A stretch of DNA of 64,000 nt from a phage, in NCBI GenBank assembly GCA_014435945.1, contig GCA_014435945.1_4088.1. The stretch is one strand, 5' to 3'. Under the pieces are notes generated by a model. The model had not been told where the DNA came from and searched no databases. It worked only from the letters and a program-made list of their open reading frames with translations. Position 1 is the stretch's first letter. Each line of letters starts with the position of its first letter. The position numbers and the translations under genes were made by a program. This document shows positions 40,387-44,801 of the stretch, one piece after another.

Positions 40387-40911
40387 ATGTCGAAGAAGGA
40401 TGCTTCGAAGAAAAAACAATCAGTACATTTCAGTACTGGAAAAGATAACTGGACTACTCCAAAGGATTTCTTTGAAGATTTGGATGAACTCTGGGAATTT
40501 ACACTAGATGCAGCGTGTGTCAAAGAAACTGCATTGTGTGATAAGTTCTTTACACCAGAAGACAATTCACTTGAACAGGACTGGGGAAACAATATCGTGT
40601 GGCTCAACCCACCGTACAGTGATTTGAAAACGTGGTTATCTAAGGCAGTTGATGCATATAACAAAGGTGCTACAGTACTGATTCTCGTACCATCAAGAAC
40701 TGATACTATAGCCTTTCAGGATTATGCTGCGAAAGTTTGTGATTGTATTTGTTTTATAAAAGGTCGCTTAAAGTTCGGTATCCCTGAAGAACCAGATAAA
40801 AAGACGGACAGTGCTCCATTCCCTAGTTGTTTAATAGTACTGGATAAGTATTTGACTCCAGCTAAAATCAACTATCTTAAATCTATTGGTCAGGTGATGA
40901 AGAACATATGA
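40387..40911 (+). CDS. DNA N6-adenine methyltransferase (phage Dam family)
   Basis: AAGGA RBS; motif region WTTPKDFFEDL...FTLDAA...VWLNPPYSDL...ILVPSRTDT matches the phage N6A-methylase family with its NPPY catalytic motif. Confidence 0.8.
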   Translation: MSKKDASKKKQSVHFSTGKDNWTTPKDFFEDLDELWEFTLDAACVKETALCDKFFTPEDNSLEQDWGNNIVWLNPPYSDLKTWLSKAVDAYNKGATVLILVPSRTDTIAFQDYAAKVCDCICFIKGRLKFGIPEEPDKKTDSAPFPSCLIVLDKYLTPAKINYLKSIGQVMKNI

Positions 40912-41441
40912 AAGAAACATGCGTAGTGACATTCGGAAGAATTAACCCTGTACATCGAGGTCATGGTTTAGTGTTTGAAAAAGCTCAAGCACTACAAGAA
41001 CAGTACAATGCTGATTTGAAAATATTCCTTAGTACCAGTACTGATGCCGTCAAAAACCCATTACCTCCTGAACTGAAAATGTACTATACAGAAGGATTTT
41101 ACCCATCTGTACAAGAAAATATCTATACAGAAGATAATCTGTTTGATATAATGAGAGAACTGGATGGAAAGTACTTAGATGTTCTTTTCATATGTGGTTC
41201 AGACAGACTTGAACCATTCCAAAAAACGCTTGACACGTACAATGGGAAGTTATATAATTTTTGTTCAATCAAGGCAGTTCAAGCTGGAATTGATCGAAAT
41301 GTAAGTCGCTACAGTTCCACACAGATGCGTGAGTTTGCCAAGAATGAAGATTTTAATAGCTTCAGTACTTTTCTACCTGGTAATGATGATGCACTGAAAA
41401 CTAAACTATTTGAAGATGTAATAAAATACATGAGGAAATAA
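40908..41441 (+). CDS. nucleotidyltransferase (HxGH cytidylyltransferase superfamily; NMN adenylyltransferase-like?)
   Basis: N-terminal TFGRINPVHRGH is the (T/H)xGH signature; ATGA overlap with methyltransferase gene. Confidence 0.6.
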   Translation: MKETCVVTFGRINPVHRGHGLVFEKAQALQEQYNADLKIFLSTSTDAVKNPLPPELKMYYTEGFYPSVQENIYTEDNLFDIMRELDGKYLDVLFICGSDRLEPFQKTLDTYNGKLYNFCSIKAVQAGIDRNVSRYSSTQMREFAKNEDFNSFSTFLPGNDDALKTKLFEDVIKYMRK

Positions 41442-41443
41442 CT

Positions 41444-41737
41444 ATGTCAGTACTGTTTAAAACTAACCCAGTACTTTGGGATCAGAATGAGGATTCGGGT
41501 TTCCGTTCAATCCATGTTGAATTCAAAGGTAATACGGTGGTTGCAATCATTGCAAACAAAACTTTAGGAAACTGGACTGCACAAGTTGTTCCTATGGGAT
41601 ATTCTTATACATCTGATGAAGTTGCGTTTCTGGCTGAATTATATAGTCAAACACCATTCATCATCAATGTTTTAGAGCGTAGTGATAAGTTAACACATGA
41701 CGAAGTAATTGACTTCCTGGCGAACTTACATGTCTGA
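41444..41737 (+). CDS. hypothetical protein (97 aa)
   Basis: ORF 2 nt after upstream stop. Confidence 0.55.
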   Translation: MSVLFKTNPVLWDQNEDSGFRSIHVEFKGNTVVAIIANKTLGNWTAQVVPMGYSYTSDEVAFLAELYSQTPFIINVLERSDKLTHDEVIDFLANLHV

Positions 41738-42017
41738 TGATTCGAATCTAACAGGTTATTTTTTACAAGAATCAATGATCAAATTCAGTGAACATTTTCC
41801 AGTACTAGATGGTGTGGAGATGTGGCATGTAAAACCACTCTTCCACACTTTCAGTAAAGAGCACAAAATGTTATTGACTGAGGCTTGTAAATCGAATAAA
41901 ATATGCCAAATCAAGATTGGTGTAAATGTCTACAAAGGATTAGTCATCTTTTTTGACAACAACAGCAACTACTTTTATATTGTTAAGGAGCATTACGTTG
42001 ACAAATACAAATACTAA
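41730..42017 (+). CDS. hypothetical protein
   Basis: ORF-track ORF 41709..42017 trimmed to ATG overlapping upstream stop; stop codon lies inside a hexamer repeat. Confidence 0.5.
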   Translation: MSDDSNLTGYFLQESMIKFSEHFPVLDGVEMWHVKPLFHTFSKEHKMLLTEACKSNKICQIKIGVNVYKGLVIFFDNNSNYFYIVKEHYVDKYKY

Positions 42018-42615
42018 TACATACTTTCGTTATCTTCGCCTAGGGCTTTCCCTACGCCCAATCCGTGGTAAGTGTGATTCACTTGCTGATTTGGATTATG
42101 CATATGCATTACATTGTGATGGTGTTCAATATGTATTAGGTGACTATGGCACATTCGAAGAATCCAATGACAGTTCAGAAATTATTGCTGGTGTTGCTAA
42201 CCTTAACAACATTGCCAATAGTTCTCGTCATGAAATCGTTCTTGAAATTCAGAACTTCATTGAGAAAAATACTGGCAAGCGTACATGGTCATATGTCGGT
42301 ACTGATGCACAAATGTCAATCGCATTTGGTAACGAAGATGGTTATGTAGCACAACTTATTATGGATTTCGAATCAGAAGAGAAGTTCCTAGAATACAAGG
42401 AAAAAATCATCCAATCCTTGTTGCAAATGGGTATTCCTGAAGATCGTATGCCTGAAATTCAAAGCATTGATGAGTTTGTTCTTATCCCATCTGATGAAAA
42501 ATATGATGCGATGTTTACAGCACTGAACATTCCTGGTGTAGTTGTTGAGTACTTCGATGATGGTGATGCTGACATTTACCTAGATCTCGACGACGATGAT
42601 GACGATGATGAATAA
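41953..42615 (+). CDS. hypothetical acidic protein with poly-Asp C-terminal tail; start unresolved
   Basis: ORF opens with TTG, no in-frame ATG for about 100 codons; ends DLDDDDDDDE; terminator follows. Confidence 0.5.
   Translation: MTTTATTFILLRSITLTNTNTNTYFRYLRLGLSLRPIRGKCDSLADLDYAYALHCDGVQYVLGDYGTFEESNDSSEIIAGVANLNNIANSSRHEIVLEIQNFIEKNTGKRTWSYVGTDAQMSIAFGNEDGYVAQLIMDFESEEKFLEYKEKIIQSLLQMGIPEDRMPEIQSIDEFVLIPSDEKYDAMFTALNIPGVVVEYFDDGDADIYLDLDDDDDDDE
42001..42024 (+). repeat. tandem hexanucleotide repeat at gene junction
   Basis: ACAAAT ACAAAT ACTAAT ACATAC; contains the stop codon of 41730..42017. Confidence 0.5.
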
Positions 42616-42621
42616 TACATA

Positions 42622-42649
42622 TAGCCCGACATAAGTTCGGGCTATTTTT
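42622..42649 (+). terminator. rho-independent terminator
   Basis: TAGCCCGA-loop-TCGGGCTA then TTTTTG. Confidence 0.7.
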
Positions 42650-42661
42650 GTAAGGGGAAAT

Positions 42662-42931
42662 ATGAATTACAAACATATACAATTCACTTATATGGAATTA
42701 TTTAAATTACACCATAATCACAGAAGTACTAACACAATTAATAAAAATGCGTTTACTCATAAATTATGGTCAAATTACCTAGAAGAATTACGTGAGTATT
42801 TTATTGATACTGAAATTTTCATTAATGGAAAAAAACGAAAGATACTTAGAGTCGATAGTTTTGGTGGTAGATTAGTACTTTCATATAAATTTGATAACGA
42901 CTTATTCTCTGTTGATTTGGTGAATATATGA
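42662..42931 (+). CDS. hypothetical protein, tandem paralog family 3 (QFTYK motif)
   Basis: N-terminus MNYKHIQFTYMELFKL. Confidence 0.6.
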   Translation: MNYKHIQFTYMELFKLHHNHRSTNTINKNAFTHKLWSNYLEELREYFIDTEIFINGKKRKILRVDSFGGRLVLSYKFDNDLFSVDLVNI

Positions 42932-43188
42932 ATTATAAAGATTTCCAATTAACATTCAAGTGCATTCGTGACCTAGCAAATAAAAATAATAGTATATTTT
43001 TAGAAGATACATGTATTGAAATGATTAATATTGTGCGTGAGAGGATTAAAGAAAAATTCAGTACTGTAATTATCAACAACGATCATGCAGAATTTTCAGA
43101 TATAATCATTAAGCTCGATGGTAAAGTAGAGGTACAGTTCTACACTGATTTTGGATTTACGAGTGTTCCTCTGGAGATATTCCCTTGA
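42928..43188 (+). CDS. hypothetical protein, tandem paralog family 3
   Basis: N-terminus MNYKDFQLTFKCIRDL. Confidence 0.6.
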   Translation: MNYKDFQLTFKCIRDLANKNNSIFLEDTCIEMINIVRERIKEKFSTVIINNDHAEFSDIIIKLDGKVEVQFYTDFGFTSVPLEIFP

Positions 43189-43496
43189 AATTAAATTTGA
43201 ATGATGTTCAATTCACGTATAAAAATATATATGGTTTGTATGACATGTATCTTTTTAGTGGGAAGATTGGTGAACATGTCGAATCAAAAGAATCACCATT
43301 TATTAATAATTACTATGATTACTTAGATTCTATTGCTGAATATATAAAAAAGAATTACAGTACTTACACTGATGGAGATGATATATTCGAATATTCAGGT
43401 GTAAAATCTTATCAAGGTATTATCCATGTAGAATTTCTTGAAAAAACTGATAGGGAATTTATGGAGATTAAAGTTTTGAAGTTAACGGACCTATAA
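43185..43496 (+). CDS. hypothetical protein, tandem paralog family 3
   Basis: N-terminus MKLNLNDVQFTYKNIYGLY. Confidence 0.6.
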   Translation: MKLNLNDVQFTYKNIYGLYDMYLFSGKIGEHVESKESPFINNYYDYLDSIAEYIKKNYSTYTDGDDIFEYSGVKSYQGIIHVEFLEKTDREFMEIKVLKLTDL

Positions 43497-43506
43497 GAGT
43501 TGACAT

Positions 43507-43818
43507 ATGAATATTAATGATATACAATTCACATACAAATTTTTGTATATCCAATACGCTACGGTTGATGCTGGAGAATATCTCTACGGTGAAATCTATC
43601 GTTCGGTATGGATAAAGTTTTTGGATGAATTACATGAATATTACCATGATTTGTGTATAGTTCGTGATAATAAAATATACAAATTCCGCGATATTGTTAG
43701 TCATAGCGGTAAGCTACGATTGGAATTAAGTACTGATAGTGATGTTGATTGGATTGGTGTAAATTTACTGGAGTTGGAGAATGAAAAACAACTTAAAGGA
43801 AATACAAGTATTTTATAA
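43507..43818 (+). CDS. hypothetical protein, tandem paralog family 3
   Basis: N-terminus MNINDIQFTYKFLYIQY. Confidence 0.6.
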   Translation: MNINDIQFTYKFLYIQYATVDAGEYLYGEIYRSVWIKFLDELHEYYHDLCIVRDNKIYKFRDIVSHSGKLRLELSTDSDVDWIGVNLLELENEKQLKGNTSIL

Positions 43819-44065
43819 ATTCTTATACTTGTCATATGTAAAAGATGAGTACTATGAAAGTGTGTATTATTTTTTATGGCAACATTACCGTACTATAGTA
43901 AGAGATTTATATATAGGAAAATCTATCATATCCAATGGTGAAAAATGTATATGTACGGATGTCGTGAGTTATAATGGTTCTTTAACACTGTGTTTCAGAT
44001 GCGTTAATAATAGTGGGTCATTTTCATTAAACATATATCAGTTAGAAGGAATAAATTTTGAATAA
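43781..44065 (+). CDS. hypothetical protein, tandem paralog family 3
   Basis: N-terminus MKNNLKEIQVFYKFLYLSY. Confidence 0.55.
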   Translation: MKNNLKEIQVFYKFLYLSYVKDEYYESVYYFLWQHYRTIVRDLYIGKSIISNGEKCICTDVVSYNGSLTLCFRCVNNSGSFSLNIYQLEGINFE

Positions 44066-44258
44066 ATGTCCATATTGCAACAGTACTCAATTAGCTCGTT
44101 TCCGTTTAGATTCAGACTGGGCCTCTGGTGCTGGGGATTTCTTTCCTATCAATGATGATGCGGAATACACTGAAGAACAGCACAAAGATTTCGATAAATC
44201 ATGGCGACCTGACATTGAGTGCATTTATTGTCTGGCATGTGAGCGTATTCATGACTAA
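44058..44258 (+). CDS. small zinc-ribbon protein
   Basis: CPYC ... CIYCLAC double CxxC pair; no in-frame ATG so probable TTG start with GAAGGA RBS. Confidence 0.5.
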   Translation: MNKCPYCNSTQLARFRLDSDWASGAGDFFPINDDAEYTEEQHKDFDKSWRPDIECIYCLACERIHD

Positions 44259-44514
44259 AGCTGAACTGATCGTGCAAACACTGCGTTTATTGAGGGATTT
44301 AGATATACCACGCATGGATGTGAAACTTGAAGATATCTACATTGAATCTCTTAGTGAAGATTACACCGATACCGTAATGATGCTGAATGACGTGCTTTAT
44401 CGTATAGATAGCATTAGTCGTATTGGAAGAACTTTAAAAGTTAATATGGAACGAGTTGATAAACTTTATGTACATATATATAGTCTTCCCATTTCAATAT
44501 TAAACTATAGATGA
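44251..44514 (+). CDS. hypothetical protein (87 aa)
   Basis: ORF-track ORF 44128..44514 trimmed to ATGACTAA overlap with upstream stop. Confidence 0.55.
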   Translation: MTKAELIVQTLRLLRDLDIPRMDVKLEDIYIESLSEDYTDTVMMLNDVLYRIDSISRIGRTLKVNMERVDKLYVHIYSLPISILNYR

Positions 44515-44801
44515 ATATCATATTAATACAAAAAACATATGCTCTACTGATGAAAGAATATACTAATACTTATGATGAAAAGTGTAGTGCAAATCATCAT
44601 ATGTATAAATTCATTACTCAAGAGTACAGGGATTATATATATGCTGCGTTAGTGGGTAGATATTTCAGTACTAAAAAACGAAAAGAACTAAAAGTTGTGG
44701 ATGTTACATTTTTCTACAACGGGCATATAACAATTCATGGTGTGGAACATAATTCACAAATATATCGTAACTACTCATCTAACGAGGTAACATTTTTATG
44801 A
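44511..44801 (+). CDS. hypothetical protein (96 aa)
   Basis: ATGA overlap; faint similarity to family 3 (IQKTYALL). Confidence 0.55.
   Translation: MNIILIQKTYALLMKEYTNTYDEKCSANHHMYKFITQEYRDYIYAALVGRYFSTKKRKELKVVDVTFFYNGHITIHGVEHNSQIYRNYSSNEVTFL

Follow-up and report, generated by a model that had tools for sequence, protein, structure and literature searches.

The locus and its genome

The window, the whole 64 000 nt stretch of phage DNA analysed here, comes from an Asteriusvirus (121Q/PBECO4-like) jumbo coliphage that is 99.8% identical to Escherichia phage vB_Ec-M-J over the 1.5 kb compared. The 1.5 kb around the junction described below matched 33 phage records, all of them Asteriusvirus (121Q/PBECO4 group) jumbo coliphages or Salmonella phages. 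In vB_Ec-M-J the counterpart region lies ∼20 kb beyond the end of the direct terminal repeat, inside a long run of small + strand genes.

At the junction, the gene for a 95 aa hypothetical protein is followed by the gene for a very acidic protein, and the final 20 nt of the first gene are shared with the second (Table 1). The mechanically called ORFs begin at 41709 and 41953, but the true starts lie elsewhere; in relatives, the upstream gene is annotated from ATG 41730 and the downstream one from TTG 41998. The upstream protein, whose C-terminus reads ...HYVDKYKY, matches its PHROG profile with E = 1.1e-58. Its gene overlaps the preceding 97 aa gene by 8 nt (window 41730–41737, ATGTCTGA), and its start varies between records, an earlier TTG being annotated in 121Q.

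Further upstream lies the gene for a Dam-family N6-adenine DNA methyltransferase (PF05869, E = 2.5e-32). The gene after it is annotated as a cytidyltransferase or nucleotidyltransferase; its Pfam matches are sub-threshold only (CTP_transf_like, 16.9 bits against a cut-off of 21; FAD_syn, 18.4 against 27). This nucleotidyltransferase gene is found 5′ of the acidic protein gene in all fully annotated relatives examined, RaK2, BF and Munch included.

Table 1. Features at and around the gene junction, in window coordinates
Feature	Position	Strand	Remarks
Dam-family N6-adenine DNA methyltransferase gene and next gene (nucleotidyltransferase)	40387–41441		Upstream of the junction
Upstream gene, 95 aa hypothetical protein, phrog_38105	41730–42017	+	CDS annotated at the same span in vB_Ec-M-J
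Shine-Dalgarno sequence TAAGGAG	41984–41990	+	Read from the sequence; 7 nt 5′ of the TTG start
TTG initiation codon of the acidic protein	41998–42000	+	Annotated start in vB_Ec-M-J, 121Q, ph0011, A4 and Turkey5
Gene for very acidic protein, 205 aa, phrog_15575	41998–42615	+	Stop codon TAA, 42613–42615
Hexamer repeat ACAAAT-ACAAAT-ACTAAT-ACATAC	42001–42024	+	Tandem Repeats Finder (TRF) score 35, 3.5 copies, 86% match
Seven Asp codons (GAC/GAT), then GAA and stop	42589–42609	+	TRF rows at 42589–42611
Intrinsic-terminator-like hairpin	42621–42650	+	9 bp stem with 5 G-C pairs, then T-run; adjoins the 3′ end of the acidic protein gene (terminator scan)

Directly 3′ of the acidic protein gene, six small paralogous genes (86–103 aa) stand in tandem (window 42662–44801). 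Their products have the N-terminal motif MN.KDIQFTYK.LY in common and align to the first member with 16–30% pairwise identity; Pfam and PADLOC searches with that first member gave no match.

Two further signal-like sequences were considered. A terminator-like hairpin within the acidic protein gene (42066–42088) has only 3 G-C pairs and was taken as chance. Within the upstream gene (41953–41981) lies a sigma-70-like, near-consensus promoter sequence, TTGACA-17 nt-TATATT (11 of 12 matches), whose predicted transcription start would land in the Shine-Dalgarno (SD) sequence of the acidic protein gene. It is kept in 121Q-type phages, while its spacing is lost in Turkey5 and its sequence in A4. With 18 such sites in the region where 14.1 are expected, and with the different spacing in Turkey5, this site too is probably due to chance.

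Initiation codon of the acidic protein gene

The initial annotation described the frame 41953–42615 as opening with TTG and having no in-frame ATG for about 100 codons. That is so: the first ATG is codon 121 of this frame, or codon 106 when counted from TTG 41998, which sits in the same frame 15 codons inside the mechanical ORF. The downstream frame is likewise +1 relative to that of the upstream gene, as had been noted (41730 mod 3 = 0; 41998 mod 3 = 1). The proposal of non-ATG initiation holds as to the kind of start, a TTG with the SD sequence TAAGGAG, but not as to its place, the codon being that at 41998 rather than that at 41953.

TAAGGAG is a 7 nt match to the anti-SD sequence. SD-dependent TTG initiation has an SD sequence 5–10 nt 5′ of an NTG codon, as here with the 7 nt spacer, and a start position that is homologous in relatives, with conservation setting in at that point; the relatives display both. 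In the five phages whose annotated start is named in Table 1, independent GenBank annotations give a protein of 203–205 aa and an overlap of 17–20 nt with the upstream gene.

We read the junction in 25 related loci. SD sequence and TTG are found there in all the Asteriusvirus members. The homologous start codon is ATG in RaK2, Hallingskeid, EJP2, the Serratia phage BF and the IMG/VR contigs L015 and L016, and GTG in the Munch-like phages (Munch, L013 and L014). Every relative examined has an SD sequence 5–8 nt 5′ of this codon, in the form AAGGAG, AAGGA, AGGAG, GAAGG or AGGGG. For six loci from five distinct relatives (Turkey5, RaK2 as L005 and L012, BF, L015 and L016), no ATG, GTG or TTG other than the homologous codon occurs from the preceding in-frame stop up to the conserved N-terminal peptide; in Turkey5 that stop is a TAA four codons 5′ of the TTG.

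Protein conservation also begins at this codon. In an alignment of 21 sequences it starts at residues 1–2 with the block NTN(S/T)NTYFRYLRLGLSLRP(I/V)RG; residues T8, R11, Y12, L13 and R14 are nearly invariant, and G16, R20, P21, R23 and G24 are invariant. The alignment to the phrog_15575 profile begins at profile position 1.

Public records disagree on the start. In phAPEC6 the gene (gp390c) is shortened to an internal TTG, giving 158 aa, and in SD-2_S15 it is lengthened to an upstream ATG without an SD sequence, giving 228 aa. The main text of the paper on the phAPEC6 virion proteome (PMC7247149) mentions neither gp390 nor gp391. In 121Q-type genomes an in-frame ATG stands 34 codons 5′ of the conserved RYLRLG motif; this ATG is absent from the clade of the window, which has a stop at −28.

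It is very unlikely that the true start lies elsewhere, whether at an upstream TTG (41953 or 41980) or at a downstream one (42091, or that chosen in phAPEC6). Alternative start codons are indeed present in frame, and the annotators of phAPEC6 and SD-2_S15 picked starts other than TTG 41998, but inspection of the upstream 20-mers found no SD sequence before any alternative. In Turkey5, RaK2 and others, in-frame stops cut off those upstream. Starting further downstream would cost the protein the best-conserved block of its family, YFRYLRLGLSLRPIRG, which is folded in the AlphaFold model of the protein (pLDDT 75–90).

The setting is an ordinary one for this genome. Within the homologous 50 kb of vB_Ec-M-J, TTG starts 6 of the 124 CDSs and GTG starts 2; neighbouring genes overlap at 78 of the 123 junctions; the overlap is 17 nt or more at 16 of these and reaches 38 nt at most. 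Neither the TTG start nor the 20 nt overlap is exceptional for this phage.

Coding frame across the overlap

The window was compared with 121Q-type genomes in two segments, one on either side of the overlap, which hold 14 and 25–27 nt differences, respectively. Between 41860 and 41997 the frame of the upstream gene keeps 41 of 45 codons between window and 121Q, against 35 of 46 for the +1 frame. Between 42018 and 42170 the relation is inverted, the +1 frame keeping 46 of 50 codons and the upstream frame 32 of 51. Codon conservation is thus specific to a different frame on each side, and therefore coding switches frame within the 20 nt overlap. Indels before the TTG in A4 and Turkey5 are 3 nt long. 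The +1 frame read before TTG 41998 is unlike between phages: it gives SSFLTTTATTFILLRSITL in the window and FILEVIIYSISPRRTIL in A4, and is interrupted by a stop in Turkey5.

These observations bear on another proposal of the initial annotation, that a programmed +1 frameshift near the end of the upstream gene joins the 95 aa protein and the acidic protein into a fusion, which would be of ∼295 aa. The downstream +1 frame is open from 41944 across the upstream stop, and an SD-like sequence stands 5′ of that stop, as such a mechanism would have it. The spacing is wrong, however. In the prfB frameshift site the SD sequence is ∼3 nt from the stop; here it lies 24 nt before the stop, at a distance ideal instead for initiation at the TTG. 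The sequence ...GAC AAA TAC AAA TAC TAA holds no slippery or hungry-codon motif and no P-site codon able to re-pair in the +1 frame, so that a shift-prone site with a correctly spaced stimulator is lacking. RNA folding of the junction found no structure (z = −0.64), and an Rfam scan of the junction found no element.

Nor is a fusion conserved among relatives. The two RaK2 genes are read in a single frame but parted by a TAA; in Turkey5 the TAA ahead of the TTG closes the +1 frame; EJP2 and Munch have an unrelated upstream gene, and BF has no counterpart of the upstream gene at all. Ahead of 41998 the +1 frame is not kept as protein, and every downstream ORF has an SD sequence and start codon of its own, where a frameshift product would have a downstream ORF without one. 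With an initiation site of its own for the downstream gene, conservation that switches frame, unfused relatives and no RNA element, the frameshift proposal is not supported, and we regard it as extremely unlikely.

A single record, that of CMSTMSU, has fused frames. There an indel in the T6 run at 41949–41954 fuses the two, and the gene is fragmented in that record. We rejected it as a sequencing error because it shows ∼11 indel sites within 1.5 kb, with roughly half falling in homopolymer runs, and because it carries the flag UNVERIFIED_ORG.

The hexamer repeat

The upstream stop codon (TAA, 42015–42017) does lie inside the tandem repeat ACAAAT-ACAAAT-ACTAAT-ACATAC, as first described. Read in the downstream frame, the repeat is ACA AAT ACA AAT ACT AAT ACA TAC, or T-N-T-N-T-N-T-Y; in the upstream frame it is GAC AAA TAC AAA TAC TAA, or D-K-Y-K-Y-stop. 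It is statistically weak. The window holds 21 micro-repeat loci with a score of at least 35, where 9.6 ± 2.9 are expected from Markov-1 random sequences, and the hexamer repeat shares the lowest of these scores.

The repeat had raised the idea of an indel switch. As a slippage-prone contingency locus, it would change its copy number and so switch the two genes between fused and separate, or on and off, and 3.5 copies of a hexamer placed exactly at a gene junction might invite that reading. We give it virtually no chance. The unit of 6 nt is a multiple of 3, so a change in copy number cannot alter the frame. The number of units, whose variation across isolates had been put forward as a check, is constant across the 14 other Asteriusvirus loci read (81–99.8% identical), which differ by point substitutions such as ACT to AGT. 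About 20 other micro-repeats of the window are at least as strong. Repeats that act as phase-variation switches have a unit that is not a multiple of 3 or sit in a promoter spacer, and vary in copy number between close isolates; this one has a 6 nt unit within coding sequence and a constant copy number.

The repeat is instead a by-product of dual coding and not a regulatory element. The peptide NTN(S/T)NTY is kept as far as RaK2, where the genes do not overlap. Because the (T/S)-N peptide persists even there, the repeat is what a conserved N-terminus built of repeated dipeptides looks like at the nucleotide level, and in Asteriusvirus the C-terminus of the upstream protein extends into it.

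Interpretation of the junction

The junction is very probably that of two separate, ordinary phage genes with a 20 nt overlap, the downstream one being translated from its own SD sequence and TTG 41998, as comparison of the sequences argues. Ribosomes would bind TAAGGAG within the 3′ end of the upstream gene and initiate at the TTG, yielding the 205 aa protein. The same 20 nt encode both the N-terminal T-N-T-N-T-N of the downstream protein and the C-terminal D-K-Y-K-Y of the upstream one.

The overlap may itself explain why TTG is used in place of ATG, a suggestion drawn from no more than three variants of one codon. In the frame of the upstream protein, the leading TT of the start codon supplies the second and third positions of a hydrophobic codon, which in the window is GTT (Val), in A4 TTT (Phe) and in Turkey5 ATT (Ile). 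Were the start ATG, that codon would have to be xAT, placing Asp, His, Tyr or Asn in the upstream protein. Relatives without this overlap use ATG.

Initiation at TTG 41998 could alternatively depend mainly on translational coupling, with ribosomes that finish the upstream gene starting the next, which would link the levels of both proteins. SD sequence and start codon do lie inside the upstream coding sequence, the 20 nt overlap is conserved across Asteriusvirus, and TTG is an intrinsically weaker start codon than ATG in E. coli initiation. Yet the SD sequence is near-perfect and the region unstructured, so independent initiation should work, and the lack of overlap in RaK2, EJP2 and BF means that coupling is not a feature of the family. 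We hold a predominant role of coupling to be a credible but rather unlikely option; it refines the explanation by two overlapping genes, one with its own SD-driven TTG start, and does not replace it.

Four versions of the downstream gene are in public records (TTG start, truncated, extended and frameshifted), and the comparative evidence settles which is correct. The result has little biological import; its practical value lies in annotation consistency.

The acidic protein

The protein has a pI of 4.05, with 43 Asp and Glu residues against 14 Lys and Arg; its core (residues 1–187) has a pI of 4.33 and a net charge of −17. It belongs to phrog_15575 over its full length (E = 5.2e-86, residues 1–200 on profile positions 1–193 of 193). 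A tblastn search found it in 70 phage records, with hosts in Escherichia, Klebsiella, Salmonella, Erwinia, Yersinia, Serratia, Cronobacter, Pectobacterium and, in one record, Xanthomonas; all but the Xanthomonas record are Enterobacterales jumbo phages.

EcMJ_159 of vB_Ec-M-J (WGM49401.1), gp421 of 121Q (YP_009102008.1) and ORF451 of RaK2 (YP_007007606.1) are the same gene. Their tblastn identities to the window protein are 99.5% (residues 1–186), 86.6% and ∼61%, respectively. They share synteny, coming after the Dam methyltransferase, the nucleotidyltransferase and small ORFs, and have the acidic tail in common. The vB_Ec-M-J and 121Q genes start at the same TTG, while RaK2 ORF451 has ATG at the homologous codon and no overlap. 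The poly-Asp run has 7 residues in the window and 6 in 121Q; the orthologues are otherwise without substantive difference.

Conservation of the protein extends over the RaK2/121Q-like jumbo phages, and metagenomes contain distant relatives of its core. When 1.84 billion representatives were searched with a profile, 48 matches were obtained at E ≤ 0.001. Some of these are longer proteins without the acidic tail that share only the core motif DGVQY...RHH..IK.VY.Y....D(I/V)WV....Q.(F)FG...GY(I/V)A(I/Q)L..D. The 37 distant relatives scanned all match phrog_15575 only, which gives no functional lead. Pfam found no family in the protein itself, in 21 family members or in these 37. The sole PADLOC match, a 16 bit hit to Cas8c, was treated as chance.

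An AlphaFold2 model (mean pLDDT 83.9, pTM 0.77) predicts an alpha/beta core at residues 1–187 and a disordered tail, with pLDDT below 50 at residues 188–205; residues 181–205 have a net charge of −14. Searches of solved structures by sequence (phmmer and profile search) returned nothing below E = 0.045, and a Foldseek search of the PDB with the model returned nothing at E ≤ 0.001. A fold search of BFVD with the same model returned orthologues only.

As the initial annotation stated, the product ends in DLDDDDDDDE. The GAC/GAT run that encodes the Asp residues is the only repeat at the locus that truly varies in length among relatives, with 5 Asp in Turkey3 and ph0011, 6 in 121Q, EC.P1 and WPEC5, 7 in the window, vB_Ec-M-J, TH47 and A4, and 8 in BF17. 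Such variation fits trinucleotide slippage and would imply little constraint on the length of the tail.

The location of its gene, which follows soon after the terminal repeat and shares a + strand block with the Dam methyltransferase and the nucleotidyltransferase, makes it probable that the acidic protein is intracellular and not part of the virion. We speculate that the poly-Asp/Glu tail, predicted to be disordered, probably serves as a module for electrostatic interaction or autoinhibition.

A bolder reading makes the protein a host-takeover factor of a new type, such as a polyanionic decoy or an inhibitor that engages a host nucleic-acid-binding protein through its variable poly-Asp tail. 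We think this distinctly improbable; if it were true, the weak TTG and the overlap would set the level of the acidic protein relative to its upstream neighbour. With good conservation, a confident model and no fold relative detected, phrog_15575 would be a sensible, though not an outstanding, choice for functional work.

Comparison with known systems

The tail invites comparison with the acidic C-terminal tails of E. coli SSB, T4 gp32 and T7 gp2.5, and with the DNA mimics Ocr and ArdA, to which the protein is alike in its acidic disordered tail and very low pI. The likeness suggested at the outset to ssDNA-binding proteins or DNA mimics is supported by nothing but charge; neither Pfam nor the PDB gave a match. 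Proteins of the SSB, gp32 and gp2.5 kind combine an acidic disordered C-terminal tail, which is present here, with an OB-fold core, in place of which an alpha/beta fold is predicted. For the anti-restriction mimics Ocr and ArdA, no sequence or fold similarity to a known mimic was found.

The resemblance of the junction to +1 frameshift sites of the prfB type or of phages is superficial only, consisting in a +1 frame open across the stop and an SD-like element upstream. It differs from them in the spacing of that element, in its lack of shift-prone codons, in that the fusion is unconserved and in the downstream start.

The closest parallel is canonical TTG or GTG initiation in overlapping phage genes, with which the junction shares a strong SD sequence, a 7 nt spacer, TTG read as fMet and a 5′ end nested in the previous gene. 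Its 20 nt overlap is longer than the commonest overlaps of 1 or 4 nt, though within the range of this genome (up to 38 nt). TTG start and overlap are already annotated in near-identical GenBank records, and the junction is a case of textbook SD-driven TTG initiation.
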